This document shows positions 3,346 to 50,527 of a stretch of DNA of 64,000 nucleotides, piece by piece; the first letter of the stretch is position 1; every line of letters starts with the position of its first letter. The translations under genes and the position numbers were made by a program. The notes beneath the pieces are model-generated. The model saw only the letters and a list, made by a program, of their open reading frames with translations. It had not been told where the DNA came from and searched no databases. Origin of the DNA: Amoebophrya sp. A120 (Eukaryota > Protista > Dinoflagellata); assembly GCA_905178155.1 (NCBI GenBank), contig CAJINV010000004.1:10271661-10335660 (forward strand), given 5' to 3'.

Positions 3346-6300
3346 ATGCAAACCCGCGACCAGACACTGCATGTGTACAATGTGCCGGCTCGCGACGCGA
3401 AACTCGGCGAAAAACTTCGCAAGTACCAGCAGGTGCGTTCCGCCAGTTTTGCCGGTTTCCATGCGGAGCAATATCGTATTTAAAAACGTCCCCACCCCAT
3501 AGTTGTAATGCAAATCTGCATGCTGAAAATGTTTCTCATGCGGAGCGCCATGAGAAGCATTATCTAGTCGCGTTTTGGCATTTGTCATGCTCCAACCAGC
3601 ATGTTGTACTAGATCTGTGATGCTGCTGAACTACCTCAAACAGTACTACAGTACGAGTTCAAATTTGTCATGCAAACCAGCCAACACTTGTGGATTTGTG
3701 TAGCCGATTCCCCATTTTGACTCTGGGGTGGGAACGTTTTTACACAGGATAAGCAAGGCCTGTACATCACCACGCGTTTCGCGGACTCCAACCAACTCCA
3801 CTACGTCTCCAGCCCCTACGGGATGCGGGAGCATATCCCGCAGAAAAAAGCAGGCAGGGCATATTTGTAATGCAAAAATAAATACACAGGAAAATCTGTC
3901 ATGGGCGAGGCCATAACATCCTGTTTAGGGCATGCAATACAGATTTTTTTGTCTATTTATTTTTGCATTACAAATATGACCTGTCGGTCTTTTTCTGGGG
4001 GATAGAGCAGTTAACCTTCCTGAAAGAGCCGGTGAAAATCTGCCTGACCCCGCCCCCCGAGGCCATCGCGCGAGCGGGGAACATATGAAATGCAAAAATG
4101 TCTGGGTCTGGAAGGTCACAACTTGTGATGCATGCTGTCTGTGGATTCTATTAAAAAATTTGTATTGCATGACCAGCAAGTGCAAGAGGGGTCGGGTTCG
4201 TCCTACGTGGAGGGGGCACTTGTTCTCATGCGGTAGAGGTATCACAAAGCCCTCTAAAATCTGTGATGCTACGGCATGCATCACAGACATCATGGCTCAT
4301 GGAAAATATGCTTGACAAGAAGTCTAGAATTGGCGAGTTGGTATAGTGGCCGGGAGATGATGGCGATGGCATCTCGGTGTCCGCCTGACCCACCTTCCCT
4401 GCGTGACAGCCATCTGCGGCCGTTTGCACAGGGGGAGGCAAAGTGTGTCGCACTTCTGTTTAGCATGACAAGTCTAGAAATCTTCCAGACCCAGACATAT
4501 TTGCATTTGATAGAACAAAGATGCGTTTTTGTACGGGATCGACAACGGCGGCGATATCCTGTGCAAAAGTATCGTACTCCTATTGCAATCATGCATCACA
4601 AATCTGTCGCTGAAGGCAAAGCAGCATTACAAATTTTATCTCTCATGCTGAGGAAATTTGTACTGCATTTATACGAGTGCGATACTTTTGCAGTTCATAG
4701 GCGACGAGAAGACGCAGTTTTGGCTCTTCGCCCGCGCGACGGGCGACGCAAAATTGCTCACCGATGGCAAGAGCTCGAACCGGTCCCCGCATTTCTGCCG
4801 CCAGAGCGGCGCCCTGGCTTTCAGCAGCAACGCGCGGGACGGGAAGCACTTCGATGTGTATTTGCTCTTGGAAAACCAAGTGCTCGGCGACGTGCACAGT
4901 AGTACAACCGGAGGAGCTTCTGCGAATCAGCACAAAGGCGCTCCTGGCGTTGTTGACAAATATGATCCAGAGCCGCCGAAGCCAGTGTTGATTTACCAGA
5001 CGGAAGAAGTAGGGTACATGATGGTCCAGGATTTTTACCATGAGGACCTGCTGTTAATCCGGCACTACAATTCCGTTTCCGATTCGAAAATGTTCCTTCT
5101 GCAAAAAAACGCAGAAACGAACACGTGGAGCCGAACAGACATCGGGGCGGCGGTAGTAGCAGGAGGTGCAGCACCTTTGTCGGCAACAAACAGTACCACG
5201 ACGACCCCGGCAACTACATCATCACTAGGAGCTGCTGCTGCAAAGAACCCGTCAACTACGATCTTTTCCCTCGACGACGGTCGCTTTACGCCCAACGGCG
5301 TGGGCGTCGTTTTCAGCACGGACGCAGGGGTGAAAACTGAGTTTAAACAGTTGTGGTACTACGATATTCTGAAGAAAAAAGCCCTTCCCGTCGCCGATAA
5401 CATTCCCTGGGACGTGGAGGACGTGCACATTAGCAGCTTCGGGGACGTCCTAGTCGTGTACAACGAGGACGGCGTGTCTACCTTCTACCACAGCGTGCTC
5501 CGTGACGCGCTGGTGGCGCCCCAAGCCGGAGGCCCGGGACTATCCTCCCCGTTCCAGACGAAGATGCCCCTGAAGAATCCCCTGACCAAAATCACGCTGC
5601 AGAGTCTGCAGATCGGCGTGTTCGGGTCCGGCGCCTTTAAAGCGAACACACGGCAGTTCGGATTTTCCTACCAGCAGGCAACGAGCCCCTCGGATGTGTT
5701 TGTGGTGGACTTTCAGCGGGAAAGGAACCGGTTTTTTTCCGTGAAACGGTGGACGGAATCGGAAATCGGCGGGTTGGACTCCTCCACCTTCGTGACCCCG
5801 CACCTGATTCGCTACAAGTCCTTCGACGGGCTGGAAATACCGGCTTTCGTGTACTACCCGAATAAAGACATGATCAAGACCGGCGGAGGCGGAGGTCCCC
5901 GCCGTGTGAAGGTGGAAGTCGTGGAGCCACCAAGTGACAAACAAGAAGCTCGTGCTGAAAGCACAAAAAATAGAAATTATCCAGATGAACAACTATCACC
6001 ACCCCCAGTACCACCTGGCGTTCCCGTCATCATCCACCCGCACGGGGGTATCAAATGCAAAAATGTCTGGGTCTGAAAGACTGCAAGATTTGTTATGCAT
6101 ATTTCTCATGACCCATGATGCCTGTAATGCATGACCTAGCATCGCAGACTTTTAGAGGTCTTCCTGATGCATCTTCCGCATGGGAATAAATGCCCTGTCC
6201 GTGTAGTAAAAACTGTACCCCTCTTGCTGGTCATGCAATACAAATTTTTTTAGAGTCCAAAAACAGCATGACAAGTTGCAATCTTCCAGACCCAGACACT

Positions 6301-7607
6301 TTTACAATCCATAGGGGGTCCGGAAGGCCAGCACCGCCCGCGGTTCGCGTCCATCTACCAGTTTCTGTGCGTGGGGCTTGGGGTGTGCATCATCGACCCG
6401 AACGTCCGGGGAAGTGCCGGGTTTGGGAAAACGTTTGTCACTCTGGACAACTTATCCTGTGCAAAAGTAATATCGTACTCGTAGTAATTGCAATCATGCA
6501 TTACAAATCTTTTTCTTAAGGTAGATCCGCATTACAAATTTTATTTGTCATGCTAAAGAAATTTGTAATGCATTTATACGAATACGATACTTTTGCAGCT
6601 CATACAACTGCGAAAAGCGCGAAGACAGCGTGAAGGACATCGGGGCGCTGATTGACTGGATTTGCGACAGTGGAACTAGTATGCATCGCAAATGCATCGC
6701 ACTCGTATGAAAACGAATTGCAGTCAACATACATGACAAATCTCTTTCTAAACCTGAAACAGCATCACAAATTCCACTTTTGTTCTTGCCGTCGAAATTA
6801 CTTATTTGTGATGCTATTCACGCTAGTGCGATGCTTTTGCAATGCATAACTAGTACAGAAGAAGGCAGCTCGACTATGACATCTACGGCAGCTTTACCGG
6901 CGACACCTACTTCTTCAGCGACCGGGACCACGTCCGGGACGACTTTGAATACTAGCCTGAGCAAAAAAGAATCCTCTTTGCAAAAGTCGACCAACAACTC
7001 GAGAGCACGACGAAGTATTTTCCAGTTCGACCCACAGCGGATCGGCGTCTGGGGCGGCTCCTACGGCGGCTACATGGTGCTAGCGTCTTTGATTCACTTC
7101 AACGACAAACTCTGCTGCGGTATCGACATGGTGGGCATCAGCAATTTTGTCACGTTTTTGGAAAACACCGCGAGCTACCGACGCGAACTGCGCAGAAAGA
7201 AGTACGGCGACGAGACCGACCCGGACATGCGGCAGCTCCTGCTGGACATCTCCCCGCTGACCAACTGCCAAAAGATCAAGGCCCCGCTCTTCATCGCGCA
7301 GGGGAAGAACGACCCCCGCGTGCCGGCTAGCGAAGCAGAGCAGATCTTCAACCAGGTGAGGCGGAACAACGGCAGGGATGCGGTTTGGTACATGCTCGCG
7401 GACGACGAGGGACACGGGTTCAGCAAGAAAAAAAACGTCGACGCGTATCAGGAAGCGATGGTGCAATTTTGGCGGAAGTTCCTGTTCAAGGAAGACATAC
7501 AGGTGGAGGACGGGAGCGGAAGTGGCAATACGGGTGGACTAGTAAATTATGCAGGCGGTGGCGGATTTCTCAGAAGAATTGTCGATACCGTCTGCCGTGC
7601 CTGCTGA
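3346..7607 (+). CDS. S9 prolyl-oligopeptidase-family peptidase, 8 exons split by 7 introners
   Basis: The spliced product reads ...YQQVRSASFAGF...TRFADSNQLH...REQLTF...GGDEKTQF...HGGPEGQ...PNVRGSAGFGK...REDSVKD...GGSYGG...QGKNDPRVP...DEGHGF. The Ser-Asp-His triad is intact. Confidence 0.93.
3472..3751. mobile_element. Introner family A (280 bp)
   Basis: TATC...GATA ends; TIR AAAAACGTCCCCACCCC; direct repeat AGCAA on both sides. Removal gives HAEQGLYITTRF. Confidence 0.93.
3834..4004. mobile_element. Introner family D (171 bp, long TIR)
   Basis: TATC...GATA ends; inverted CATATTTGTAATGCAAAAATAAATA; direct repeat GAGCA. Removal gives GMREQLTF. Confidence 0.92.
4084..4512. mobile_element. Introner family B with nested insertion (429 bp)
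   Basis: TATG...GATA ends; TIR AAATGCAAAAATGTCTGGGTCTGGAAG; direct repeat GAACA. Removal gives AGNKDAFLYG. Confidence 0.92.
4555..4699. mobile_element. Introner family C (145 bp)
   Basis: TATC...CATA ends; TIR TGCAAAAGTATCG; direct repeat GGCGA. Removal gives DNGGDEKTQF. Confidence 0.93.
6049..6313. mobile_element. Introner family B (265 bp)
   Basis: TATC...CATA ends; direct repeat GGGGG. Removal restores the HGGPEGQ motif. Confidence 0.94.
6453..6604. mobile_element. Introner family C (152 bp)
   Basis: TATC...CATA ends; direct repeat CAACT. Removal gives LDNCEKREDSVKD. Confidence 0.93.
6680..6848. mobile_element. Introner, family C-related (169 bp)
   Basis: TATGCATCGCAAATGCATCGCACT and its inverse at the ends; direct repeat ACTAG. 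Removal gives WICDSGTSTEE. Confidence 0.9.
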
Positions 7608-8482: not shown

Positions 8483-10112
8483 ATGTCTGATGACGACGGG
8501 CGGAAGAACGTAGGGCTCCCCGCCAAGCGCGAAATGCTGCAGAAGCATATGGTTGATACGTGGCAGCTTAAGTACACTCGTGTGTACGCCTCGCGTTGGG
8601 AAAAGCAACTAACTACTGGCTGGCCGAAGGCTTGCAAGGACAAGTTGTTTGGGCGGGGGATGGACACGCCGAAATTTTGGGGCGACTTTCATGCGCAGCC
8701 TTTCCAGCAGGAAAAGCAAAAGAGCGGAAAGAAGCATCTGTTTGTGACTATCGCGACCTACAACCGTGACCTGCTAGACGGTTCCGAGCAGCTGCAATTT
8801 CTCGTCGACAACTTTCCCGGCTTTCGTGCGATCGACACGACAAAGTATCTCATTTGTTCGCTTTTTTCATCTGATGCTGCGACACTAAAAGTTTGCTCAT
8901 TAGAATTACATTGCTTGCAATTCTCATTCTTCATCTATCACTATCTTCTTGATGTTCTTTTGAGACGGCCGCTTCGTTTACATCGTGGCTCGTGGAAGTG
9001 TCCCGACTCCATTATGGGCATTGTGACATCGAAGATGTGGCATCAAAATGGAAATCCTCTAACTCAACAGATACATGGACGGTAAGGATCGGTACTATGC
9101 AATCGGAGTGCTCATTCCGCGGAATTCCGAGGTCTACAGGGAAGATGCCGAGAAGTTTGCGTGCAGCTGCCGAACCTTTGGCCTTGAAGACATTTGGTCG
9201 GCCGGTTCCGGGGCAGCGCAGGTATGGGGCTCTCAAGCGTTACGCTCTCAACTGTTGCACGATTTTGGGATGCAAGAAGAGCAAAACAAAAGGCAAAGGA
9301 GGGAGCTTGCACCTCTCGCATTTTTACAAGTGCCCTTGGCTTGCCTTGCCCTTGGCTTGCCTTGCCCTTGGCTTGCCTTGCCCTTGGCTTGCCTTGCCCT
9401 TGGCTTGCCTTGCCCTTGGCTTGCCTTGCCCTTGGCTNNNNNNNNNNNNNNNNNNNNNNNNNNNNNNNNNNNNNNNNNNNNNNNNNNNNNNNNNNNNNNN
9501 NNNNNNNNNNNNNNNNNNNNNNNNNNNNNNNNNNNNNNNNNNNNNNNNNNNNNNNNNNNNNNNNNNNNNNNNCCTTGCCTTGCCTTGCCTTGCCTTGCCT
9601 TGCCTTGCCTTGCCTTGCCTTGCCTTGCCTTGCCTTGCCTTGCCTTGCCTTGCCTTGCCTTGCCCTGCCCCCTTGCCTTCTCTTTTACAAATCTGGCCCA
9701 GATTTCATCTATGTTGTTTGGCCCTTCGCGGACTTGTCATGCGCAGCAGCTTGATCGCGTAGCTGTTGTTGTAGTTGATGGCAATTCTGCATGACAAATC
9801 ACGCAACAGTTGAGACTGTAATGCTTGAGAACCCCATTGCACGGAAACAAGACTTCCACGCAGGTCCTGCTGGAGATCAAGCACGAAGAGAAAGAGGAAG
9901 AGTTCGCGCGGAAAAACGCCCACCTGATGCAGGAAAACAACCGGCTCGCGCAGGAGAACAGCACGCTCAAGCGGAGTAAGGTCCGGTTGGAACAAGAGCT
10001 GCAGAAAAAAGCTACAGGAACCCCGGACAAGAAGCGCCAGAGAACCAGCGTAGATGATTTTTGGGCGAATCTACCAATCCTAGATGACGAGTTCTTCGCT
10101 GTCAAGAAATGA
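8483..10112 (+). CDS. Hypothetical protein with C-terminal coiled coil, 3 exons
   Basis: MSDDDGRK... is joined in frame through a GT-AG intron (8845-9070) and an introner (9223-9838) to ...EIKHEEKEEEFARKNAHLMQENNRLAQENSTLK...*. Confidence 0.65.
8845..9070 (+). other. Canonical GT-AG intron
   Basis: AA|GTATCT...CAACAG|A. Phase 2, frame-preserving (TTKYMDGK). Confidence 0.65.
9223..9838. mobile_element. Introner family E, expanded by a microsatellite
   Basis: ~40-bp TIR (ATGGGGCTCTCAAGCGTTAC...CTCAACTGTTGC); repeats GCAGG/GCACG. The interior matches the reverse complement of 43081-43326. Confidence 0.85.
9331..9679. repeat. (CCTTG)n and 16-bp CCTTGGCTTGCCTTGC microsatellite containing an assembly gap (N at 9438-9572)
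   Basis: Directly visible tandem units on both sides of the N run. Confidence 0.95.
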
Positions 10113-13352: not shown

Positions 13353-16300
13353 ATGCATACCATCATCAACCTGAACAGTACCTCCAAGCTCCCCGGCGCA
13401 GGAGGAGCCGGGACGACGAGCGGCAAAAACCGGCTCACGAAGGGCGCGCTGTCTATTGCGCAGAACCGGCAGCGGCACGATCCCACGCGGAGCTTGCGCG
13501 ACACCTCCGACCGCTTCGAAAAGTACCGATCCGGGTCGCAATTGAACGACCGCAAGGACGGCTACCACAAGTCCGACAAAGTCCTCGGGCACGGGGCCAA
13601 GGGCGACGTGCACGAGGCGATCCGCGTGGATATCCTTTGTAAAAACGTCCCCACCCCAGAGTTGTAATGCAAATGCGCAATGACAGGAACATTTGTAATG
13701 CGCATCCCCATGAGAGGTATTTCCAATCGTGATTTGGCATTTGTAATGCTGTAAACAGGATTAGAAATTGGCTTTCTCATGCGGCTTGCCTTACTATGCA
13801 CCACTATACTACAGACGAAAACTTGTCATGTACAACTCCCAAAGCTTGCCGATTTGTCTAGCAGATTTCCCATCTTGACTCTGGTGTGGGGACGTTTTTA
13901 CTCAGGATAGTGGAGGGGGGCTGCTTTCGGTACGTGGCGTTGAAAAGGATCAAGCTGTCTTCGATGTCGTTCAACACGGCCCGGGCGACGATGTACGTGG
14001 AATTAAGAGTGGCGGAGCTGGTGAACAGCGTCAACGAAAAGGAGATCCAGGAGAAGAAAGATTCTCAAAATCTTGCGCAAGAGAACAAGCGAATAAATCT
14101 CAGCCCCATGTCCTCCTCCACGCGGTTGGGCGGGTCGAGCTCACCCAACAGTAGCGCCAGCGGGTCCGGGAACGAAGCCGCTGGAGATGGATTATCTTCT
14201 CCGAATGGGAATGGAAGTCAGAGTCATCACACCAGGTTGGCCAAGAACCTGGCCTTGACTGGTGATCATGAGCCTGGGTTTGGTGCAGCGGCTCATTCGA
14301 CGTCGATTTCTTTCTCTGGCGCTCCTTTCTCCACTTACGAAAACACGACGGGGATCCGGCGCGCTGATCTCGACAGCCACAACAGCAGCTTCAACCAAAA
14401 AACTACAGGCCAGCATCAAAACCTCCCGCCCTATCAGAAGATTCTGACCGTTTCCAAAGGTTTGTGGGAGGCGGCGCGACCGCGCTGCAAAAACCTGATC
14501 CAGCTTTTGGACTGGTTTCCGGGGAAAGACGGCATTGACCGCGAGATCTTTTTGGTCATGCAGCGGGGCGACTTGGGCTTGGAAAAAATGATCAACTTTG
14601 TCACGAAAAAGCGCACGGACTACGAGTCCAGCTTTGCCACGGCGAAAGTGTCGATTTTACGGGAGAAGAACCATTTTTACAATCTGAATCAGCACATTCT
14701 AACCCAAGCGGACGCGGATCTGATGCACGCGAATCGGGGGGTGCTCGAGTCGGTCGACCGCCACGGAGAAATTACCGCCAGCATGCTGAACAAGCAGCTG
14801 GCGGGGCAAGACGCGCGGGAGTTCCGCTCAAACTTCGCCGCGAATTCGTGGGATCATCACGGCAACAGAAATAACAGTGGTAACAACGACAGTTCGTTCA
14901 ACGTCTACAACAAGAAGGAAAACAAATTGAATCAAACGATCAAGCTCCCACCCATCAGCCGTACAGTCAGTAACACTTCATCCGGTGCAAGAACCAGCGC
15001 CGCGGCCGCTGCGAAAAAAGCGGCTATTTATCCACTGCAAAAGTATCGTACTCGTATAAATGCGAATCTAGCATCACAGATCTGCTTTCTTACCTGAATC
15101 TGCATGACAAATTTCATTTTTCTTCTAGGAAAAATTTGTCATGCGAATTGTACTAGTACGAAACTTTTGCGATGCATATTATTATGAACAGCACGATGTC
15201 GGTTTCGCTCTCGTCCGGCGAGCCGCTGGATTTCGACGGCAAGAGACTGCCGAAGAGCCTGCGGGTGCCGGGGTACTTTAAGGGTTTTCTGGAGAGAAAC
15301 AAGCTGAATGGGAATAGCATGAGCACCTACGTGCCCCCAAAGCAGATGGAGGGCAGCCACAGGCAGAGTTCGCCAACCTATAGAGGTTTAACATCTCCTC
15401 GTCTGGATGAAGACGATCTATTTGATGCGGTTGAACCGCTTTCTGGAGGTGAAGACGACGAGGGTTTTTCTTCCTCTTCAGCCACAGCAGACAGAGACGA
15501 GAACTACACTATCAACGAACAGAACCGCAGTCGGGGCCGGAGCAAAGCAGAAAACAAGCGCCGCACATCAAGTCGTCCACATCCGACCGCAACCACGACC
15601 AGGGAAGATGTTGTCGAAACTTCCACAAGGGACAACAAGTCAACGCAACCCGCCGCGACCAACTGGCGGACTCTGTACGAACAGGAGCGCGCCACCCGGA
15701 GGTCCAACAACCACTACGGTGGGGCCAACAACGTGGACATCCGCGACCAGATGTCGGCGGGTGCGCAGCGGTTTGCGGAGGGGGAAATCCGGAAGGTTTA
15801 CTGGCACATTCTGTCCGCTTTGGACTACCTGAACTCTCTGGGAATCGTCCACCGGGACGTGAAGCCGGAAAACATTCTGTGGTGCGAGCACGACAAGGCG
15901 CAGACCTTCCCCATGATGCACCCGGCGAGCGCTTTCAACCCGTTTGGAGGCGGCCCCGGCCCGCAGCGGAATTTAGAGGAAAGTGCTGTAGAGACGAAAA
16001 ACCTGCCGCATCACTTCAACAGCCTGAAAGAGTACAGAGAGTACATGAAGGAACAGGAAAACCTATTCTGAGTAAGAACATCCCTACCCCAGAGTTGTCA
16101 TGCAAATCTGCATGCCAAAAAAGTTTCTCATGCGAAGCCCCATGAGAAGCTTTTTCTAGTCGTGTTTTGGGATTTGTGCTGCTAGAAAAAGCATGATATG
16201 CTAGACCTGTGAGTCTGCTGAACTAGCTAAACAGGATTACACTACGAGGACAAACTTGTCATGCGACACAACCAAAGTTGGCTGATTTGTCTAGCAGCTT

Positions 16301-17520
16301 CCCCATTTTGACTCTGGTACTATGGGGACGTTTTTACACAGGATAAAACCAGAAAGAGCAAGAGAAACTGGACGAACAGAACTTGCTCAGCGGGAACAGC
16401 GCAGCAGGGTTCATGAGCTTTCCATCAAACAGTAATTATTCGTCGAGCAGTTCTTATGGGAACAACACTTCTTCTTCTTCTTCAAACTATCGCACCAGAA
16501 CGCAGCGCAGCACGTTTCTGACCGAGAACACTCCCTTGCCGCAGCAGGGCGTCTACAAACTCTCCGACTTTGGGTCCGCTTTCATTTTGCCAAACGCGAC
16601 CAGTTTGGTGAACCAAAGGCAAACCATTCTGAACAAACAGCCAGAGCACGTGCAGAAGAAGATTCTTGACGGCGCGCAGTCGAACGGCATCGGGAGAATC
16701 CACATCTACAACGAATCTCGGCAAGCGGTAGGCACGTTGTCCACCATGGCGCCGGAGGTCATGCGGGGCCAGGCACACGACAACAGCTGTGACATTTGGT
16801 CGCTGGGGTGCGTGTTGTATGAACTGGCGCAGCTCGAGAAGTGTTTCATGCCGTGGGAGCTCTCAGCATATCAGATGGCGATGGAGGGGTGCAGTGGGTT
16901 CGCGAATGGGGGGCTGTTGCAACTACCCGCCTGTTTGAAAAACGCAAAAGAGCAGCTGGGTAAATCAGGAGAAAACAGCCTCCTGAAGGTGACAATAAGC
17001 GCGACGGATAGTGCGGGTGCCCGAGACAGGTCTGCGTCAAACAACAGCAAATATCCACAGATCGAAAAGCTACACCAGCGGAACCGCGGGAAAAATCCCA
17101 GACCAAGTGTGCCAATACCGAGCAAGGGCGAGCGAATCCACCGGAATGACCTGAAACCAAAGTATCTATCGATAAATTGCATTTTCATTTAATTTTTGCT
17201 TCCGTTCCTCAAATGTAAGTAGACCCAGGAGCCGCATATAAGTACATACATGATCAACTTGTCGTGTCAGGCTCGTTTCTTACTTAGTACACAGAAAAAA
17301 TTCATCCCATTTCATGAAAACCAACAGGGGAAGCTGGCTCCGGTGGACGTATAGCAACGGCCTGCGTGCTGCTGTGGCCGAATGTCTGGAGTACAAGCCA
17401 AATAACCGACCGACGGCGAGCAAACTCTTGGAGGAGAACGAGAACGGCATCGAAAAAGTAGCTCTGAACAACAACAGCTCCAGCGCCTGGACGGCACTAC
17501 GGGTGTTTAACGACATGTAA
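13353..17520 (+). CDS. Ser/Thr protein kinase with large low-complexity inserts, 5 exons
   Basis: GHGAKG, VALK, HRDVKPEN, DFG, APE, DIWSLG and RPTA occur in order after removing three introners and one GT-AG intron. Confidence 0.9.
13631..13909. mobile_element. Introner family A (279 bp)
   Basis: TATC...GATA ends; direct repeat GTGGA. Removal gives IRVEGGCFRYVALK. Confidence 0.93.
15029..15178. mobile_element. Introner family C (150 bp)
   Basis: TATC...CATA ends; repeats CTATT/TTATT. Joins ORFs 13886.. and 15172.. in frame. Confidence 0.88.
16064..16345. mobile_element. Introner family A (282 bp)
   Basis: TATT...GATA ends; direct repeat AAACC. Removal gives EQENQKEQEK. Confidence 0.92.
17162..17294 (+). 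other. Canonical GT-AG intron
   Basis: AA|GTATCT...ACACAG|A. Joins in frame to the kinase subdomain XI exon. Confidence 0.75.
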
Positions 17521-19430: not shown

Positions 19431-19689
19431 TGGCTCAATCTATTAGCAGGGGGTTTGCAAGCAAGGGACTCGCGAAGCCAAGGGGTTGTGCAAAAAGCCC
19501 CCGCTCGGCATGACCAAGCGGGGGCGGATCCAAATTTTGCGCGAGTTTGTCTCTATTTCCCAAGTGTGTTTTGCTTGGGTTGAGGAAACGCAGGCCGTGG
19601 CTGGAGAAAAGTGCAGCATTGGAGCCCCGACCTCTTTCTATCTCACAGGCGCAAACTCTCACGAGGCCCCCCGGAGCTCCGACTGCGTC

Positions 19690-19895: not shown

Positions 19896-21885
19896 TGGAC
19901 ACATCGAACTCTCCTTCTGCCGAGACCTTTCTGCCGCCCTGGCGGAAGTGCCTACTGGGCGGCGATAGGATGCGGCGCTACCAGCCTCGCAGGGGCGGGC
20001 TGCAGCCCCGGTAGGGAGGCAGGTGCGCCGCGCGCCCCGACCACCCCCCTATCGTGCTTCGCCCTCCTTGCCGTTGCGGTTGTCTTCTAAATCCGAAACC
20101 GATATGCGTTTTTCCATAAGTCGTAAACTCGGTCAATTGTCGTCTGTCCAAAACCAACCAACCGACCGACCAACCGACCGGAATTTAGGCCTACAGGCCC
20201 ACGCCTACTCAAATTTTCATATTTTTGTTTTTTTCATGCATACATCTATAAAATGAAAGATCATATGCTAATGAATGATGATGAATGCAAATTTCTATGC
20301 AAAATCATGGGTGATCTGCTGTCATGGCACTAAGGTATACATCTGTTTTTCTTTTTTCTTCTGATGCAAAATGAAAATACAAAACAAACAGCTCCCGACG
20401 ACTCGCGTCTTTATATGTTGCTTGTTAAGTGTCTGTTCGTCCAAGAGATCGAAATTTTAAGATCATAAGAGACTTCGGTACTTTTCGGTAGATTTCGATC
20501 TTCGTGACATCGTCGATTTTGTATACTCTCGTTCATTATCGACGCTACAGGCTATTCGTCATTTCCTCAGCTCTTATCTTTTAGTTCGGGTCGTATCTTC
20601 GTAGCATCTTTCCGTACATCCATCGTGCTTTCGCGCTATATATCGTACACTTTCGATTCATCATGCAATACGTATTCTCCTCGTCTTTCGTCATCGTCGC
20701 TCGTATCGATCGAATTATCGTATTTATTAATCTACTGCATCGTCTATCGTAATCCCTCTCCCCTACATATATTTTCCTATTCGCTTTTCGGTCAACTTCG
20801 GTTTCCATCCGATCCTGCCGATCTTCGTCTCCGGTTTGTTCTGTGTGGTGTTGTTTTGCTTCCTCCGCGACCTCATTATCTCTACAACACGTTAAAACTA
20901 TGAGCACTTGGACGGTGGAGCCGGCGCCCCTACCCGCCTTGTGCACTGGGATCATAGTTTTAAGCGAGCACCATTGCACATCCACCACCTAGGGCTGCCT
21001 TCCCACGCAGCGTGGGCGATATGCTTTGGACGGTAGGGGCAGAAGTGTTGTCCTTTCCCTCTCTCTCCCTTTCGTCGTTTCTTGTTTAGCTTTTGTGTAT
21101 GTCATATCGGTGTAAGACTAAGACATAAACACATTTTACAACATTGTCATTGTGTTTTCCTTTTCTTCTTTGACTTCGTGGGGCAGCGTGACGAGTGAGA
21201 AAGAAACATCTTATTTCCAGTAGCATGTATTTCAGTCATTTCTGATGTTTCCTTGGATTTCTTACGCCCGCTGCAAGGAAAAACTGGATAAGTCCACTTC
21301 TTCCAGAGCTTGTGTGTACTACTACCTTCAACGCACGTTTTAGCCTCCCGAGAAAGAACACAAGAAAAAAGCACAGCAATAGCGTCACTACAAAGAACAA
21401 AGATTTTTGCGAGTGCCGTGTAGAACAAAGCATAGAGTGCTGTTGAGAACAAATGTGTGTGAAAATGTGTGCTTCCACTGTCCAAATTCGCTTATCCGTC
21501 AACAAACTTGCTTTCAAATTCAAACATGGTGTCCTCACTCTTCATGAAATTTTGGCAGAGTCCCTCCCTGTCAGCACATGAATCATCATCTTCACCACCC
21601 CAGCGCATAAAGGGAACAAAAAAGAAAACCTCCATTTTGTTCCATGAGAAAAAGAATACGACCCTACATGCAACTACAGATGCGGGAGGACCAGCGCGAG
21701 CTCATGGTTCTTGTAATGTGCTAAACAGTAGCCGCGACTCCAAGCGTGGCCAGCTTTACGTTCCGTTGTTGCTCAAAAAATCTTCCTCCAGCACAGCTTC
21801 TCCTGGTTGTTCGTCACCAAAAAGTAGTACATTTGCCAAAGCGGCCGCCACAAGAAAGACCAAGAAACTTCTGCAAGGGACGGAG

Positions 21886-24800
21886 ATGAGCACTTCTATG
21901 CAGCAGCAGGAGCTGCAGCCGTACAAGTGCGAGCTTCGGCTTGGCGGCATGACGTGCAGTGCGTGTAGCGGCACGATTGAAAATATGCTGAGGAAGACGG
22001 ACGGCGTGGAGCAGGCGCACGTATTGCTGTTGCTCAACAAGGCAGTGATCACGTACAACCGAGCGAAGGTCACCGCTAAGGACTTGGCGGAGAACGTGGA
22101 CGACATCGGATTCGACGCAGAAGTGGTGAAAGACCACGCGGTGGCAACAAACGCGACCGGTCCTGCTGCAGGAGCGGCTGCACCAGGAACTACTACAGCC
22201 GACCCAGCCAGCGTGCAATTATCGATGGAGGGAAATGGAAAGCAAAAGCAGCAGCAAACCGCAGGAGCAAGAGCAGACGGCGCGCTGGACGAAAACCTTC
22301 ACGCGGGTGTTGAACACGTCGAAAATGATATACAAAATCACCAGCAGCACGACCTCCAAGAACAAGACACTTCCGACGAAGAGGTCTGCGAGCTCCACCT
22401 GTGGGAGTGGCCGAGTGAGCGCGCCGATTTGGACCAAATCGAGCACTTCTTTCCGCCGGGTAGCATTTTGTCCGTCCGCGCTCTGCGACCCCGGAAAAAA
22501 CGGTCGATGAAGAAGTCGCGGAAATACATCACGAATTCGATCCCCTCCTGGCTGAAATCGAGCTCCGGAGGGACTTACGCGGCGTTTCTGGACGACAGTG
22601 GTAGTGCTGACAAAAGTCCGAAGCACGGTCGTGCTAGACGGGAAGATCATGATGGCGATGTAGTCGTAGCAGGGAGAAGAAGTGATTCGGAGCAAGATGC
22701 TCGTCACTACGAGCACGAGGACGACGAGGCGACAACCTCTTCGGACGAAGAAGTTGAACAGCGGCGCGGCTCAGGCTCGTCCAAGAGGGAAGTTCGTCTC
22801 CAAAAGAACCCCGCAGCATCGCGGCGTCTCTCGACCCGGTCCTCAGACGAGGAGGCGACTTCTATGAAGAACCCTGCTGCGGGCGAAACCACAGACGGCG
22901 CTGCGACTTCTCCCGCGAATCTGCACGGTGCAATACCGCCACCCGGATCGGGCCGGAGGCACGTCGGTAATATTGTTCCGGCGTTTGGATCCTCTTCAAA
23001 AGGTCCGATCCACCAACGGCTGCGGACGACCTCGGCGGATGACATTGTTGTGACTACGGACGATTTTAGAGGAAGCAAGGCGGAGACGAGTGCTGGTGAT
23101 CAGCACCGCTTTGGTGCAAAAAATGCTGCACAAACTAGTACACAACTCCACCAACCAGTATTACTCAGCCCCAACGCCGCGGTTCCGAGTTCATCTACCG
23201 GCCCGCAAGGATCCTTTAGAAGTACACTGGCAACCGTTCAAGTAGATCATGACCGTAGTTCCGCATCTGCTTCGACCACGACCCTTGTCTGCATCCGCTA
23301 CTACCCGGACAAGGTTTCCGCAAGGCAAATTCTCCAGCTTGCGAGACAGCATCTCAGCAGGGAGATCAACCACGACTACGAAAGGTTTCAGCTCTTCCAA
23401 CGGCACAACAAGCCGGAGAACATCGAAGCAACCGAACTGCGGAAGAATTGTCTCCGGTCCATGCCCTTCGCTTTGGCCATGCTGGTGATGGTGTTTGTCC
23501 TCCCGCATGAGTACGGCCACACGAAATTCTACAAGTACTTGAACGAGACCCAAATCGTGCCCGGACTGCATGTATGGATTGCAAAAATGTCTGGGTCTGG
23601 AAGAATGCAGGAGTTTGTCATGCAGATTTCGCATGACTCCTGATGTCTGTGATGCATGCTCTAGCATCACAGATCTTGCGAGGGCTTCCTGATGCCTACA
23701 CTGCATGAGAAATGCCCTCTCGCCGTGGTAAAAACTGGACCCCTTTTGCTGTTCATGCAATGCAGATTTATTGTGGAATCCAAATCCAGCATGACAAGTT
23801 GCAACCTTCCAGACCCAGACATGTTTGCAATGCATAGCACGTGAAAACCGTGATTTTCTTGCTTCTCGCCACGCCCGTATCCTGAGTAAAAACGTACCCA
23901 CACCATAGTTGTCATGCAACTCTGCATGCTTAAAATGTTTCTCATGCGGAGCCCCATGAGAAGCGTTTTCTAATGCGGTTTTGAAATTTGTCATGCTCCA
24001 ATCAGCACGAGATGCTAGATCTGTAATGCTGCTAAACTAGCTCAAACAGCACTACACTACGCGGACAAACTTGTCATGCCAGACAACCAAAGCTGGCTGA
24101 TTTGTCTAGCAGATTCCCCATCCTGACTCTGGTGTGGGTACGTTTTTACTCAGGATAGCCCGTGCAGTTCATCTTCGGAGCGCGGTTTCACCGCGGGGCG
24201 CGGAAAGCTTGGAAGAACAAAACGCCGAACATGGACGTGTTAGTGTCCGTCGCCGCGACCGTCAGTTACGCGTATTCCGTTCTCGTGTTATTAATAGCGA
24301 TCATCGCGGCCACTTTTTTCAATCTGGACTGCCGCCAACCCCCACCGCACTTTTTCGAGGCACCGACGACACTGATTGCGGTGTTGTTGGGCGGAAAGTA
24401 CCTGGAAGTGAGGACGAAACAGCGGACCGTTGCGGTGCTGGAACGGCTGTTGCAGCAGAAGAGCGATAAGAATGCTAGTGATGGTGGCTCTGGTCGAGAC
24501 ACGGTACGGGTAGTGACTTTGGTCTCGCAGCAGCGGACGACAGGGGGGTCGATCATGGCGAGGACCAGCAGCTCGACAGCTGCAACATCTTCGTCCTCAA
24601 CGTCTGCTCCCTCACTTCTGAAGCGGAAAATCAAGGCCATGCCGCTGGAGCTGCTGCACTATTCCGACCGGATTCTGCTTAAGCCAGGCGACCGCGTGCC
24701 TGTCGACGGAGTGATAACGGCGGATGAATTTGACGAAGCAGATACTAGTAACTTAAGTAACGCAAAGAGCGCATCGTCAACATCGTCTTCTACAAAAATC

Positions 24801-27409
24801 CGTGATGACAACAAAAATCTTCAGCAAATAACCCATCATCAACGCGTTACCGTCGATGAAGCTCTCTTAACCGGGGAATCACAAGGCGTCATCCGGGAAG
24901 TGCACCAGACGCTCTACGCCGGCAGCTTCGTGCTGAAAGGCTCGTGCTACCTGCAGCCGACGCGGATCGGGTCGAAGACGATGCTGAGCGAGATTGCCTC
25001 CATGGTGAAGGATGCGCAGTCGCACAAGCCGGAGATCGAGCGCATGGCCGACAAGATCGCGCGGAAGTTTGTGCCCGCGGTGATGCTGCTCGCGTTCTGC
25101 ACCACGGTGATTTGGCTCATCACGGTTTTTTCGTCGCCAGAGGTCCGCGCGCCGGAAAACGAGTCGATGGACAACATGATGATGCAGGACGAGGTATCAA
25201 AACGAAAAATCCCCCAACCCCATATCGAAACGAAGTTTGTGATGCTGGATTTGCGTACACAGATCAGATTTGTCTTGCTGGAGAGGACTGCAGGCCCATA
25301 CCAAGTCTGAGCAGAGAGGTTTTGGGCTAGGCTCTTAGCATGAGAAACGTCTGCGCTGTAGGCCCAACAGCATCACAAATCGCCTGCATAAAGCGGCGGA
25401 GCCTGTGGAGTTGCCTTCTTGCAAGATAGAGACGATTTGTGGTCGCAAATCAGCATTGCAAATTTTCTGCTACGTGCCTTTTCGATATGGGGAGGGGGGA
25501 TTTTCCCTCACAATACGAGGCGGGGACCTTTTTCGCCCACGCCTTTGACACGCTGTTCGCCCTGAAGTTTGGGCTGGCCGTGCTGCTGGTCGCCTGTCCC
25601 TGCGCGATGGGTTTGGCCACGCCGACGGCAATCTTGGTCGCCACGGGCGTGGCAGCGGAGCGGGGAATCTTTTTGAAGGGCGGGTTTCCGCTGGAGAGCG
25701 GGGCGCGAAAGGGCCTGAAGATCGTTCTAGACAAAACCGGGACGTTGACGGAAGGCAGATGCCGGGTGGTCGAGTCCGGCATCTACTATGACGTGTCTCC
25801 ACCTGCTTCCGACACGAAATCCTCTGTCTCCAGCACGAAATCGCCCGTGCAGCCGGGCGACGGAGCAGACCAGGTTTCCTCTACCAGCGCGTCGCGAACG
25901 ATCGTGGTTCGGACCGGCACTCTGGTGAGCGGAACTGCAAATACGGATCCCACAAGCTCTGCCGACCGAACACTTTTCAATGTGTCCGTTTCCAAAACCT
26001 CGTCCCTACACAGCAACCAAGCTGCCGTTGTCGCGTCCTCCTCCTCGCCGGCCCCGGGGGCAGATGCAGACCCAGACGAGAAACAAAACTACAAAACTGC
26101 AGAAACCATTGGTGCCACCCCGAATGCCAACGCCGACCCTCCAAACCTCGTGATCGGGAAACCGGTTGACCTCGCGGGCGAGGTTGAGGTTCAGGAGGAG
26201 GAGGATCGGCAACGGGACTTGTGGCACGCGGTCGCGGCGCTCGAAGATAAATCCGAACATCCGCTGGCCGTTGCGTTGGTCGCGTACGCGCGGAAGCAGA
26301 CGAAGCGGTTGCTGCTAAATCAACAGATGATGGGAGATGACTCGTACGCAGCGAGTCGTGCAGGAGTAGATTTGGTCGCCGAGAGCGGTTCGATCGCGTT
26401 TTCGCCCAACAATGATATCGAGTTGAAAGTGCGGAACTTTGAGAACGTCGCGGGGCGCGGAATCCAGGGAGAAGTACTGTTTCCGTGGCATAACGACGTC
26501 GAAAACCAGTGGCGATTCGTGAAAATCGGTAGTGCTGCGTTTGTGTTGAACGAGGAAAACAAGGGGCAGGCGACGTGGTCGTCCCTCGACGGTAGTAGCA
26601 CCATGACAAATTCGAAAAGCGATCGTGCACTACAACCCGCGACCCCCGGCAGCTCCACCACATCACCAGCAGCCGCAACCAGCACCGCCGCCACGCTGAT
26701 CTACGTTTCCATCGACGGCATCCCCTTCGGCTGGGCGGCCGTCGCGGACAAAATCCGCCCGAACGTCGCGAAGTCCATCGCGAAACTGCAGCAAGAGTTC
26801 CAGGCGAAGGTCTATCTGTGCACCGGCGACGCGCGCCCGACGGCCGTCAGTGTGGCGACCGAAGTCGGGATCCCCCTGGCGCACGTGCGGGCCGAGTGTT
26901 TGCCGCAGGACAAGGCCGCGTTCGTGCAGGAGCTGCAGGCCTTGCCGCGCGGCGGGGTTTCCACGCCGTTTCAACAGATCCCGGCTGTGTCTTCCTCCAC
27001 TTCAAAACCACATAAAAAGTCAATCGTTTTCTTCGTCGGCGACGGCCTGAACGACGCCGCCGCGCTGGCCGCCGCGGACGCGGGCTTGGCGATCGGGTGC
27101 GGCGCCAGCGTGTCTGTCCACGCCGCAGACGTGGTTTTGGTGAAGGAAAATCTGGGCGAAACGCTGGTGCCGTTTCTGCAACTCGCACGGAAAACGATGG
27201 CTACGATCAAACTGAACTTTTTCTGGGCCTTTTGCTTCAACTTCTTGATGCTGCCCCTGGCCGCGGGCGTCTTCTACCAGTGCTGCGGACTCTCCGTGCC
27301 CCCACTGGTGGCCGGGACAGCGATGGCGTCGAGTAGCACGCTGGTGCTGTTGAGCTCGCTGCAGCTGCGGTACGTACATTTGTCCGACCCGGCGGCAGGG
27401 ATAGAGTAG
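21886..27409 (+). CDS. P1B-type heavy-metal (Cu+) transporting ATPase, ATP7/CopA-like, 4 exons
   Basis: GMTCSAC HMA domain, LATPVQF, PNMDVLV, LTGES, CPCAMGLATP, DKTGT, SEHPLA, TGD, GDGLND and MASSS. The start could lie further upstream (frame open from 21469). Confidence 0.93.
23573..23836. mobile_element. Introner family B (264 bp)
   Basis: TATG...CATA ends; repeats GCATG/GCACG. Removal gives PGLHVKTVIF. Confidence 0.92.
23878..24157. mobile_element. Introner family A (280 bp)
   Basis: TATCCTGAGTAAAAACGTACCCACACCA and its perfect inverse; direct repeat GCCCG. Removal restores LATPVQF. Confidence 0.95.
25195..25515. mobile_element. Introner family F (321 bp)
   Basis: TATC...AATA ends; inverted CCCCATATCGAAA; direct repeat CGAGG. 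Removal gives QDEAGTFF. Confidence 0.88.
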
Positions 27410-37236: not shown

Positions 37237-39402
37237 ATGAACGCGGCAGAGTTCGAGCAGCGCCGCCTGAAATTCTTCGAGAATGTGGCGGCTGCCGGGC
37301 TGGACCCCAAGAACCTGCGCGTCGGCGGCGAGCGGTTGCAGAAGAAAAAAAAAGTTCGGATGTCCAAACTCAAAAAGCTGATCCAGCTAGATCAGTACGA
37401 GGCCGCGGAAACCGAGCGGGAGCGGCTGCGGAATCTGTATTCTGTCCGCGACACACCAATGTTCCGGCCCTTTTCAATACACAGGGCAGATGAACAAGAT
37501 ACTTCCAGCATTGCGGACGCCGAAGATGCTCATCCGGTGGAAAGTTCGAATTGCAATAAACTAGAAAGCCTGACACTATTTCCTCCTGTTGGTCAGCTGC
37601 AGCAGACTCGAAGCGTCGACCCTTTCGCATTCTCGTTTTCCATTCGGGAGCTGCTCGAAGCCGACGCGGACGCGGCGGAACTGCTGCACAGCAGCGGGAC
37701 GGAGGCAGAAGGCGACAGTGGCAGTGCAGCAGGAGATAAAAAGACACATCATAAAGGCGATCCTAGAGTTGAAGAGAACCCAGTGGAAACTGCTACTTCC
37801 GGGTCTCTACCGTCGAAAGCCCTTGGTGTAGCAGCAAGTCCAGTGGCGGAAAGAACTGCAACTGGGGCGGAAAAGGCGAAGCAAGGTCAGAAAGGGAGCC
37901 CAACACCAAACGGACTGGCCATGCCATCGGACCAAGAGTGGAGCGACGCGTTTCGAGCAGAGTGCCGCCTGCTTTTCGAAGATATCAAAGAGCACAGCGC
38001 AGTAGCTGGAGGACACCAAGACGTTGGCAACACCGAAAAAGAAATAAAGCCGGGAAGTTTATCCTCCAGTGCTGCTGACACTCACGAAGGGTCATCTGCT
38101 GTTGCAGCAAGTCAACAAGGAGTTGTGGCTCATCAAAGGAGGTACAAGACGCTCCAGCTCCCGTCCTGGGCGCTCCAACTCGGTGGACAGTCTCGACCTC
38201 TTGCGGGATCGACAACCCCAGGGGACGAGACTTCAACTGTCACAGCTGCATTGCCGCCGGAACAAACACCCCCTCCTCGCGAATGGGAATGGGTTCAAGA
38301 AGCTTACGCGGACATGTTTCATCTGCCATTGCAAGATCAAACTTCTAGCGGCAATAGACCCACAGGCGGCAAGGGAAGTAAGGCTGCCGCGGCTTCTAGT
38401 GCAGGTACTTCGTCCAGCAGCAAAGCTCCTTCAACAAGTCAACCACCCCCAGCGACCATTTGGAACCACCAGCCCTTTTTCGAATACCGACTCCACCGTA
38501 ACGACAAGAACTTCTATACGACAGGGGATAAACCACACCTCGAAGGCGGAAATAACCTCCCGGGCAAAGGAAATAAATCGCACTTTGCAGCATCCTCATC
38601 CTCGTCCGCCCCGGCGCCACCAGCGACTTCTAATTATCACAGCAACAATATTCTCCGAATCCGGCACTACGTGCACGCGCTGATTTCCGAGGATTTGAAT
38701 GAAAAGGTGAAAAACATGTTGCTTCAGCTTAACATGTACCAGGAGCGCGTGAAGGAGTCCAATCCGATGAAATTTGCGAAGCAGAAACGGCTCGTGCTGG
38801 GGCTCCGCGAAATTGCCCGTGCGTTGAAGCGCGAAAAACTGCTCGGCATGATCGTGGCGCCGGACCTGGAATCCAGCGCCCGCGGGCTGGACCAAACGGT
38901 AGAGGACATGATGGAGCAGTGCCGCAGCCAGAACTTGCCGATCGTGTTTGCGCTGACGCGGCGCAGCTTGGGCTTCACGCTGAAGAGACTGCGGGACAGC
39001 AACGGGGTTGCTGCGGTCGGGCTGCTCTCCGTGGAGGGTCAGAACCGCTATCAAATGCAAAAATGCCTGGGTCTGGAAGATTTGAACTTGTCATGCTAAA
39101 TCTAAATGATGCAAAATTCTGTGTTGCGTGAGTGCCAAAAGCTGTCGGCTTTTGACCAAGTTGCGAGGGAGTTTCTCATGCAGGAAAGGCATGATAGAGA
39201 CCTCAAAGAATCTGTCATGCTGGGTCTCGCATTCCACACCTCATGGGTCATGGAAAACCTGCATCACAAATCTTGCATTCTTCCCGACCCAGACATTTTT
39301 ACATTTTATAACCGCGAGTGGCGGGCGATCTGCAAGCAGAGCGAGGAACTGCGCGCGGCCTGGGTCATGCAGCAAATGGGGGGTGGAGGGGGGATCATGT
39401 GA
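37237..39402 (+). CDS. SECISBP2: SECIS-binding protein 2 (L7Ae domain), 2 exons
   Basis: RHYVHALIS...YQERVKESNPMKFAKQKRLVLGLREI...GLDQTV...PIVFALTRRSLG...VAAVGLLSVEG follows the SBP2 RNA-binding domain pattern. Confidence 0.87.
39049..39310. mobile_element. Introner family B (262 bp)
   Basis: TATC...TATA ends; direct repeat ACCGC. Removal gives EGQNREWRAI. Confidence 0.92.
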
Positions 39403-40808: not shown

Positions 40809-43800
40809 ATGTTGGCGTTCTTCCATTTCAGTTTTACTACATTCGTCCTCGCGGGTGCCTTTGCCCGACTCGCTCTCGGCGCCCGTGTAGGATCTTGGAC
40901 ACAGCCGGTAGGCGGGGCGGCGGGGCCCAACACAGATGTTGAAGTTCCTGCACCGACGCAGCAAGAAGTCCCCGGACACGTAGATGAAGTCGCCCACGAG
41001 CTGCAGGGCGGACAGCACGACCGGCAGGTGGAACATAACCAAGTACACGCACACCAGGCCCAGCCTACAAACCTTTCCACAGTAGAGGAGCTGCAACAAC
41101 AGGAACAATTGTCGTCGTGCAAAGGATGGTTCTTGCCGCACTGCAGATCCTCACGCCGGTACGCAGAAGATCAACATCCTTCAAGCTCTGCGCGCGCAAG
41201 AAATGAAGGAGCAGAACAGGTCGCACCAAAACGTCATACGCAAGAAGATCAAACTGAGTTTGGCCAACCGTCTTCACCTGTTCCGCAGCTTCCATCTGAC
41301 TTGTTCGTCGTCCCAGGTGTGCCTTTTCGCAACTTCAGCCAAGAACAGGGCTTCTTTCATCCCATGTTGATGCAGGAACGAATGACGAGCCACAGTACCA
41401 GGGATGATTTTTCGGCTGCTGCTGCCCAGCCGGTGGTCCAGCAACAGCAGCAGCAGCGGCAGGAGAGTTTTTCTGTGCCGGCGCAGCAGGTCCAGCATGG
41501 CTACAACACTCGACACGCTTGCAATCAACCCGGGTTTATTACTGCTGATGGCTCTGCAGCTGCGGGCCAGCAAGATGAGCAAGGACAACAACTACAGCAG
41601 CAACTGCAAGTTCCCCACCAGCAACAGATCTTTCCTTGCGCCGTGGTTCTGATGGGCATCCCCATCCCGGATCCGCCCCCGTATATGGGAAACGATCCCC
41701 AGCTCCAGCACAACCTTCTGCAGCTTCAAGAAATAAGCGAACAGCAGGAAAGTGGTGGCACTGCCAACTTCAACTTGTCCTTCGAGGACCATAGTCAACA
41801 ACATCCTGGACGGCCCGATGCACAGCAGAATTGTTCTACGACTAATTTGTTCCAGCGACAATGCTCGTCGCAGTCCCAGATATCGGCTGGGAGCGCAGCA
41901 GCTTCAGAAGGTGGAAATTTTTATAGCGGTCCACAAACAGGTTGTGGGATGCGAAGCGATCTGTTGCAACTCGACCAACTCGCGGAGGAGGTGAAAAGGC
42001 AGCTAACGCTCGGAGGCGCAATGGCGGAGAGCGGCGGTAGTGCACAACGGGCCCCAGAAGGAAATATCAACGACATGAGTAGGCCACAGGCCACCACGAG
42101 CACAACGGTGGCGCCGGGGGCTCCTGCACCTCAGCATGATAATTGTCCGGTTTTTTATCAGCAACAGCAGACTCAGTTCCACATTTTTCCGCCAGCGTCA
42201 AACATTTTTCCTGTGCAGCAGCAACAGGCAACTACGCAAGGCACACAGCAGCACCAGCCATCTCAGAATTTTCAAGTGCCAAGGTCGCAAGAACATGCAG
42301 CACAGCAGTATGCTGCTGCCCCAATGGTCGCAGCTAACTCTTCAAGTACTTGCCTGCAACAAGGCGTAGTGGTCCACCCGGGAATTGTGAACGCCTGTGC
42401 TGGTCCGCCTCCCGCTCCCGCCCTTGGTCACCAGTACGTGTATGTGATGCAAGTCGCTCCTTCGAGCGCGATGTCGCATCACAGCTTCTTATCGTCTTCC
42501 GCTGCTGGCACGGAAGATAGTAGCTGCTGTGCCAGCAGCAGCGCACCAGCCCTCGGGTCAACCTCGTCCGCGCCGGCATCTTCAGAACCCCTGTCTCCGG
42601 TACTAGGGCCACCGGATAAACAACTGCAGCGCCAGCAACTAGTGGAAGCAGCGCTAGGTAACGATGAACGCCGACCCCGTTGTGGTACTGGTCCTCCGAT
42701 AGCAACGGCCCATGCCCTGCCCTGCGCGCAAACCGGCAAACCTCGGGCACAGTTGCATTTTCCCTCGCAAAAATTTGACATTGGGGTCATGTCCGAGGCC
42801 AAACGCGAAAAGTTGAGAAACCTGCCACTGCAAATGCCCCTCATGCTCGACAAGAGGAGGGATAGTTGGACGACCACGCCGGGAACATCAGATCCAGGAG
42901 CTGCTTCGTCGGCCGGAGCGCTTGCCGCTGCACCTGGAACTTCTACACGAAGAGCAACGGCCGCCACAGAAGGCGCTACAACTACTTCGTACCAAGGACA
43001 ATCTCTTTGCTCCGGGAGTAACTGCGTCAAACTGGTTTCCAAGGGTTCGGTCGGCCACCCCCGAACCTGCGCGCCGCCGTTATGGCGTCCTCAACTGTTA
43101 CATTCTCAACTGTTACACGATTTGTCATGCAAATTTACCACCAAGATCGCCACGATTAAGCTGCTTCGCATGACAGATATCCGAAGGGCTACACAGCATG
43201 GAAATCTGTGCCAAATCTGTAATGCAAAAGGCGCAAGCTTGTCCCTTTGCCTTTGCTTTCACTTTTGCCGTTCTTGCATTACAAATTCGTGTAACAGTTG
43301 AGAATGTAACACTTGAGAACGTCATAGCCGTGCCCCTTTCACGACCAGTGTCTGCGGGGGGCCAACTGCGACTTTTGCCACGAGTGCTGGCCGAACCAGC
43401 TGCAGGAGCGGGAATACACGATCCCACGACAAATGATTTCGCGCGGATCCGCCTCCGAGCCGGCCGCCCGGTTTCACACGATGGGGTGCAGCTGCCAGAA
43501 CGTCTGCCCCTACCAAGATTGTGACCTCGGGGTGGACTGCGAGATGTGCCACTGGTGCTTGCCAAACGAGTGGCAACTGAAACACGAGCAGAGTTACCGC
43601 TTGGAACTGCCCATCAAACCGCTGCCGAAGCGTGAGTCGAAGGGTAACAAGGCTAGTGGCGGTAGTTCTTCTTCGTCTTCTTGCCGTCGTCCTGACGCGG
43701 CGGTCGTGCTCGCGGAAAAGAAGCAGAAAAAGAACATCATTGCTTCTACTTCATCATGTTCTTCTCACGCCGCACCGCCGGACGGAAAGTTATCTGATGC

Positions 43801-50463: not shown

Positions 50464-50527
50464 AAGGTGTATGGTGTTGTGGTTGTTCGTTTAGTTTTGT
50501 TCGAGGCCGCTATAAAAACTACAAGTA
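50464..50527. repeat. M motif copy ending ACTACAAGTA
   Basis: Near-identical to 48466-48519. The same ending occurs at 53623-53660. Confidence 0.88.

Follow-up and report, generated by a model that had tools for sequence, protein, structure and literature searches.

Introduction

The closest described system to the one treated here comes from the same organism. Amoebophrya sp. A120 has been reported to contain 29 850 repeated introns, and its introner elements to carry inverted repeats of 8–20 nt and direct repeats of 3–5 nt (Farhat et al., 2021; PMC7789003), with 5 bp given for the direct repeat in the legend to Fig. S19 of that paper; the motifs begin with TAT, followed by seven variable bases and then by at least three A. 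The A120 elements are also listed by Gozashti et al. (2025; PMC12130899). Here, we analyse a window of the A120 genome (the whole 64 kb stretch that was studied; all coordinates are positions within it) in which 16 complete elements of this kind interrupt six genes. The window elements are almost certainly the published A120 introners, an identification already proposed in a first-pass annotation and borne out by letter-identical A120 proteins and by TAT + 7 nt + AAA ends as described in PMC7789003. Judged from these sequence comparisons, they are very probably removed from RNA together with one copy of the repeat. The element system itself is already known, having been published for this very strain. 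What is new here is its blindness to orientation, the unbiased repeat, a shared TGTNATGC motif, the lack of a G·U signal and the statistics of repeat mismatches. Neither a literature search nor the text of PMC7789003 turned up any account of orientation, branch points, lariats or a subterminal motif in the A120 elements; Figs 3, 4 and S19–S25 of that paper may show some of this.

Elements in the window and agreement with deposited proteins

A scan for TAT…ATA-like ends with paired arms and a 5 bp repeat gave 16 complete elements (E1–E16) between positions 3346 and 43326 in six host genes (g1–g6; Table 1). All 16 start with TAT, 15 end in ATA and one (E8) ends in ATT; the flanking repeat is present throughout, perfect in 13 cases and with one mismatch in three (9223–9838, 15029–15178 and 23573–23836). 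These counts recover in full what the first-pass annotation had claimed for this span. TAT + 7 nt + AAA is found at 13 of the 16 5′ ends and at 13 of the 16 3′ ends, the A run being absent from E8 and E16. At a strict threshold (inverted-repeat match of at least 14 of 22 plus a perfect repeat) the window yields 14 matches, 13 of them real and one a spurious cross-element pair, against three summed over 30 shuffles. A looser threshold gives 24 matches against a shuffle mean of 8.5, the eight extra being at chance level, and a first general inverted-repeat scan was too loose (about 230–250 matches per shuffle in three shuffles). All elements except the singleton E2 cluster with other copies.

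Deposited A120 proteins were retrieved by exon queries and compared with models from which each element had been removed together with 5 nt. The models of g1 (871 residues; seven elements), g2 (260 residues; one element and one GT-AG intron), g3 (1091 residues; three elements and a GT-AG intron) and g4 (1667 residues; three elements) are letter-identical to four deposited proteins (GSA120T00016907, 16906, 16904 and 16902), which covers 14 of the 16 elements, E15 in g5 and E16 in g6 lying outside the comparison. For g2, identity with P0001 is obtained only when the upstream copy of the repeat is retained. The precise loss of element plus one repeat that had been proposed at first pass is thus supported by these predicted models. 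The deposited models were derived by aligning transcripts and proteins and choosing the longest open reading frame (ORF; PMC7789003), and for this reason the match is indirect evidence of splicing. At both LATPVQF and the GLH site, the g4 orthologues of A25 and AT5 align colinearly.

Each of the 15 gap-free elements, if retained, brings one to seven in-frame stops into its host gene; E8 spans a 135-N assembly gap, and its coordinates give an apparent length only. In g1, g3, g4 and g6 the frame is longest when the element is deleted together with 5 nt, as the earlier claim of frame restoration in every case would have it; for g5 that claim gains nothing, since its one element, E15, is close to the stop and the test does not discriminate.

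Relatives in another assembly: repeat and orientation

The family-B end pattern retrieved at least 141 loci from a metagenome collection, 80 of them with full flanks and those 80 all from one assembly. All but one of the 16 window elements have relatives among these loci, with identities reaching 94%. The loci gave 299 unfiltered end pairs (duplicates and cross-pairs included), from which 232 unique elements were kept; strand and frame were called for 143 of these (89 dropped) by a codon model trained on three window genes, with concordant calls in 30 of 34 multi-element loci. The exact repeat of 5 bp occurs in 179 of the 299 end pairs, against 0–3 pairs each for repeats of 3, 4, 6, 7 and 8 bp, and the two copies are mismatched in about one in six relatives. 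Among the 143 strand-called relatives the repeat has no base bias. The G at repeat position 1 that seemed preferred in the window (nine of 16, giving …ATAG) was rejected as a bias, being found in 45 of the 143 relatives.

Families A, B and C each occur in both orientations among the strand-called relatives (B 26:29, A 8:6, C 6:11), and the orientations remain mixed in the strict subset (B 15:13, A 3:5, C 5:8). Within the window, E3 and E15 point the opposite way to E5 and E12; the oppositely oriented E3 and E5 are both absent from a single deposited protein (g1). Since removal has to restore the sequence exactly whichever way an element is inserted, its signal lies in the symmetric ends; the first-pass proposal to this effect is supported by the copies in both orientations. 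Any removal mechanism must cope with both orientations and with every 5-base repeat.

Sliding the junction through the repeat gives GT-AG once (E14), GC-AG once (E4) and AT-AC once (E3), the last having been overlooked in the first-pass count, which was otherwise correct. A GT or GC donor with an AG acceptor is available in only two of the 16 window elements and ten of the 143 relatives (GT-AG in seven), and a canonical U2-type intron was rejected; the sliding test and the relatives together support the earlier statement that the elements lack canonical GT-AG ends. The U12-type consensus is an RTATCCTT donor with an AC or AG acceptor. Only E9 reads ATATCCTT, in register −1 and with GG as acceptor, and this class was also rejected; minor small nuclear RNAs are reported to be absent from A120 (PMC7789003).

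It is most improbable that the normal spliceosome uses nearby canonical sites, keeping the frame and adding or dropping codons (for example G/GTAT…ATAG/, net +3). Such GT-AG pairs exist for E5, E12 and E13, and removal of +2, +5 and +8 nt opens frames equally often (60, 60 and 59 of about 149 cases, against 23–27 for other lengths). The deposited proteins, however, are net 0 in all 14 elements checked, HGGPEG is present in the homologues P0004 and P0005, TPVQ has one proline in 71 of 150 matches and two prolines in none (the motif is absent from 79), and E2 and E15 have no such pair in the searched range. The net +3 form was rejected on the deposited proteins and the homologue motifs.

Element ends, RNA pairing and the shared motif

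End positions 1–3 and 11–13 are nearly fixed and position 4 is C or G. Of 159 elements, 67 leave arm position 4 unpaired. Arm mismatches show no overall wobble excess (G–U against A–C, 112:130); an excess of G–U at arm positions 17–22 (18:4 in the strict subset) comes from one of 20 tests. The arms co-vary in family A (p = 0.0055), which may reflect subfamily descent, and show no such signal in families B (p = 0.31) and C (p = 0.42). The conservation of the ends looks like that of a motif rather than of pairing. The minimum-energy fold pairs the ends in 13 of 15 window elements, with z = −9.7 for E13; folding alone is uninformative because any element with terminal inverted repeats (TIRs) folds. 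That an RNA hairpin guides removal, as the first-pass annotation had it, is not shown by the mismatch ratio or by the arms, which co-vary in only one of three families.

These observations bear on removal from RNA by a route independent of the spliceosome (Euglena-like or by endonuclease and ligase), in which paired ends or end-bound proteins would align both 5 nt repeats, with a junction that may shift inside the repeat. This was the view taken at first pass; we consider it unlikely, although it is the main rival to the reading favoured below. It would accommodate the orientation-blindness of the families, with the opposite copies E3 and E5 both missing from the same deposited protein, a junction without sequence preference, the paired folds, and the excess of synonymous repeat mismatches described below. 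The missing overall G–U excess, the frequently unpaired arm position 4, the lack of co-variation in families B and C and the absence of the Euglena CDG signature from all 16 ends weigh on the other side.

The motif TGTNATGC, first picked out visually in the window, is shared by 239 of 243 elements and by 16 of 18 clusters (families A and B merging as one cluster), against a shuffle mean of 0.46 clusters. Its density is 15.6 per kb in elements and 0.13 per kb in the remaining window. The first occurrence is mostly 30–49 nt inward from each end, and the motif points inward from both ends; in window family A it lies on one strand only, though A occurs in both orientations. Shared descent of all families could account for part of this recurrence. 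TGTNATGC is a putative subterminal protein-binding motif.

Ciliate internal eliminated sequences are a precedent for precise, transposase-like excision from DNA. Were the A120 elements similarly excised from DNA in expressing cells, RNA would never contain them; full strand symmetry, a DNA-type subterminal motif facing inward from both ends and the missing RNA-pairing signal would all fit. We nevertheless hold such excision to be improbable: the elements are present in the DNA of both assemblies, the asymmetry between their 5′ and 3′ ends follows the direction of the transcript, and Amoebophrya is not known to have a separate somatic nucleus.

In families A and C (E1, E4, E6, E9, E11 and E13) a U-rich tract and CAG lie 4–6 nt inside the 3′ end; this normal-looking acceptor is unused in the deposited models.

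Where the cut falls

The deposited proteins carry the base of the upstream repeat copy at E8 (repeat position 4, Gln rather than His) and at E10 (position 1, Ala rather than Val). In the deposited g2 the upstream copy of the repeat persists as far as base 4, consistent with a cut at −1 or 0. The first T of the elements is invariant (0 of 119 free ends changed) and the last A is changed in six of 128 (p = 0.03). The end asymmetry and the retention of the upstream base fit a cut one base before TAT.

Single mismatches between the two repeat copies are synonymous in 16 of 25 cases, against six and four of 25 when read in the wrong frames, and 15 of the 25 fall at third codon positions (expected share 0.35, p = 0.01); with the three window mismatches added, 17 of 28 are synonymous. 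This analysis is post hoc and comes from a small sample and a single data set, as does, in the latter respect, the end-asymmetry result. The synonymous excess hints that both repeat copies can reach mRNA. With some hesitation, and as less probable than the spliceosome-independent route above, we entertain a joining reaction that is blind to sequence and orientation, guided by homology and with a junction sliding within the 5-base duplication, so that both copies would come under protein-coding selection; a dedicated factor on TGTNATGC would hold the ends together. If true, this would be a transposon-reversal system at the RNA (or DNA) level, distinct from spliceosomal splicing, that renders tens of thousands of coding insertions harmless.

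Element-free cDNA might also be a template-switch artefact of reverse transcriptase, the mRNA keeping the elements because the genes are dead or ribosomes bypass them. A hairpin flanked by short repeats is a known substrate for such false introns (PMC2923612), and the published evidence is cDNA-based. Several points make this very unlikely: all 15 gap-free elements bring in-frame stops, four host genes have Pfam-level or near-level domains, colinearity with the A25 and AT5 orthologues extends across the junctions, and the upstream copy at base 4 of g2 would rarely be expected from a 3′-side switch. Ribosome hopping on a matched codon was rejected: the mismatch lies within the one codon that is complete and in frame in 15 of 25 cases, precisely the number expected by chance.

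Sliding a junction to the best-scoring splice site is the rule used by BLAT. An aligner-sliding simulation (best GT-AG/CT-AC) reproduces most of the motifs in Table S4 of PMC7789003, where the nine top A120 splice motifs are all NT-NN; this table therefore cannot decide the register and was rejected as support for N/TAT. The annotated ends of large A120 families in PMC12130899 are scattered, about half being non-canonical (among 21 of the 58 A120 rows). Where the two repeat copies differ, as in E8, E10, E12 and roughly one relative in six, existing RNA-seq would reveal the cut position directly.

A relaxed spliceosome as the favoured removal mechanism

The reading that we tentatively favour is that a relaxed, U1-less spliceosome reads the symmetric ends in an N/TAT register. 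A120 has nearly all spliceosomal proteins together with U2, U4, U5 and U6, and U1 was not detected (PMC7789003). The 5′ end N/TAT(C/G) would stand in for a GTAT donor whose +1 base is not fixed, and the 3′ cut would be set by position, 4 nt past the inverted end; the paired ends may bring both repeats together, making AG and a polar branch signal dispensable. Genes g2 and g3 each hold both canonical and element introns, and both canonical donors are GTATCT, matching N + TATC.

A number of points weigh against this relaxed spliceosome. The canonical donors seen number only two. There is no preference for a +1 G or for AG, as the seven of 143 relatives with a possible GT-AG show, and a polar branch site has no place in an orientation-blind system. 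The pipeline behind the deposited models, described above, favours the longest ORF. Four of the six altered terminal A's are G, able to pair with the 5′ U, so that the end asymmetry fits pairing too. A fixed cut frees one copy of each base to drift and therefore predicts a synonymous share of 0.30–0.46, which the observed 16 of 25 exceeds (p = 0.0004–0.055 depending on parameters). The TAT ends are equally explained by the needs of a transposase. Orientation-blindness, the unbiased repeat and the synonymous excess pull towards a separate, homology-guided route.

Origin of the elements

The elements share several features with miniature inverted-repeat transposable elements: TIRs, a target duplication of fixed length, the lack of an ORF and insertion in both orientations. 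On this basis the elements are likely to be non-autonomous DNA transposons, and the TIRs, fixed repeat and both orientations point to cut-and-paste or integrase-like insertion, in which a DDE/integrase-like transposase would create the 5 bp target duplication. Long family-B copies with perfect 5 bp repeats were found at relative loci L046 (1501–2531, 1031 nt) and L053 (1501–2472, 972 nt), with longest open frames of 151 and 86 residues, respectively; no transposase was evident when the open frames of the longest copies, up to a limit of 1.2 kb, were inspected by eye, and the loci yielded no autonomous copy. In the literature, one A120 introner family is reported to have TIRs together with ORFs like those of long terminal repeat elements. 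The relative loci include no empty allele of any window gene, families A, B and C have no matches in viral contigs and an Rfam search of the window found no family. IS3EU/GingerRoot elements (PMC10045372) share TA…TA termini with the window elements and have integrase-related transposases; their duplication is usually 6 bp, whereas here it is strictly 5 bp, with a 6 bp repeat in none of the 299 end pairs.

Further element remains occur in the window. Positions 1–86 hold the end of a 17th element (family B) at the window edge, followed by an open frame. A truncated, internally duplicated family-C fragment (35701–35777) lies just after an apparently frame-shifted ORF (about 34962–35580) with a Cys/His cluster that is gag-like by eye only. 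On the minus strand, 57260–57420 is a decayed TAT…ATA element without a matching 5 bp repeat, apparently inside a longer GT-AG-bounded stretch; it could have been freed from constraint inside a canonical intron.

Host genes and other features

Table 1. Host genes, canonical introns and elements E1–E16 in the A120 window.
Feature	Description	Position	Strand	Basis
g1	Prolyl oligopeptidase (Peptidase_S9), host of E1–E7	3346..7607	+	Pfam; spliced model = deposited P0003, 871 aa
E1	Family A, repeat AGCAA	3472..3751	.	End/repeat scan, deposited model
E2	Singleton, repeat GAGCA	3834..4004	.	End/repeat scan, clustering
E3	Family B, opposite orientation to E5, repeat GAACA	4084..4512	.	Scan
E4	Family C, repeat GGCGA, GC-AG register possible	4555..4699	.	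Scan, sliding test
E5	Family B, repeat GGGGG, interrupts HGGPEG	6049..6313	.	Scan, deposited model
E6	Family C, repeat CAACT	6453..6604	.	Scan
E7	Family C-related, repeat ACTAG	6680..6848	.	Scan, clustering
g2	260-aa protein, no Pfam family, host of E8 and one canonical intron	8483..10112	+	Deposited P0001
g2 intron	Canonical GT-AG, donor GTATCT	8845..9070	+	Deposited model
E8	Repeats GCAGG/GCACG, ends ATT, microsatellite inside	9223..9838	.	Scan
g3	Protein kinase, host of E9–E11 and one canonical intron	13353..17520	+	Pfam; = deposited P0002, 1091 aa
E9	Family A, repeat GTGGA	13631..13909	.	Scan
E10	Family C, repeats CTATT/TTATT	15029..15178	.	Scan
E11	Family A, repeat AAACC	16064..16345	.	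Scan
g3 intron	Canonical GT-AG, donor GTATCT	17162..17327	+	Deposited model
g4	Heavy-metal P-type ATPase, host of E12–E14	21526..27409	+	Pfam; = deposited P0006, 1667 aa
E12	Family B, same orientation as E5, repeats GCATG/GCACG	23573..23836	.	Scan
E13	Family A, perfect 28-bp inverted ends, repeat GCCCG, interrupts LATPVQF	23878..24157	.	Scan
E14	Repeat CGAGG, GT-AG register possible	25195..25515	.	Scan, sliding test
g5	Host of E15, start uncertain	37237..39402	+	Weak L7Ae match, 21.7 bits, below cut-off 22.1
E15	Family B, opposite orientation to E5, repeat ACCGC	39049..39310	.	Scan
g6	Cys/His-cluster protein, CCCH-like by eye, host of E16, start uncertain	41364..44461	+	Reading frame
E16	Same cluster as E8, repeat GCCGT	43081..43326	.	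Scan, clustering

Compared with the remaining family-B copies, E3 (4084–4512) is enlarged by an internal insert of about 165 nt that has a duplicated stretch on its flanks. Neither exon of g6 has a Pfam match. A GDSL-lipase gene at 11024–12154 is element-free and sits between element-bearing genes. Between g3 and g4 lies a 1.9 kb element (18325–20225) with 97-nt inverted ends that are 93% complementary and with internal palindromic tandem repeats of about 70 nt; no target duplication was seen. The region 45100–56900 is long and gene-poor; it contains a GAAA microsatellite, repeats that are dispersed along it and CTAAACCCT-like motifs that recur. The relative loci L013 and L024 have local matches at 63805–63987 and 48514–48614.

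Comparison with known systems

The nonconventional introns of Euglena (PMC12501133) are likewise abundant, non-GT-AG, paired at their ends and found together with canonical introns. Their code, N3CDG…CH′G N5–6/R, is absent from the ends of the 16 window elements, and the abstract and opening of the introduction of that paper make no mention of a 5 bp duplication. The introners of Polarella, Symbiodinium and Aureococcus, which have TIRs and target-site duplications (10.1101/2020.10.14.339549; PMC9860276), are likewise DNA-transposon introns, and some classes in Polarella and Aureococcus work in either orientation, there with canonical-type sites. In these introners G(T/C/A) and AG are supplied by the element or co-opted from its duplication, which is therefore biased in sequence, whereas the repeat in A120 is unbiased. 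From the published A120 introners (PMC7789003; PMC12130899) the window elements differ in nothing of kind: the organism, the genes, the TAT + 7 nt + AAA ends, the 3–5-nt repeat, the families and the lack of GT-AG are the same. What the present analysis contributes to that published system is a set of constraints on its mechanism, together with cheap tests.

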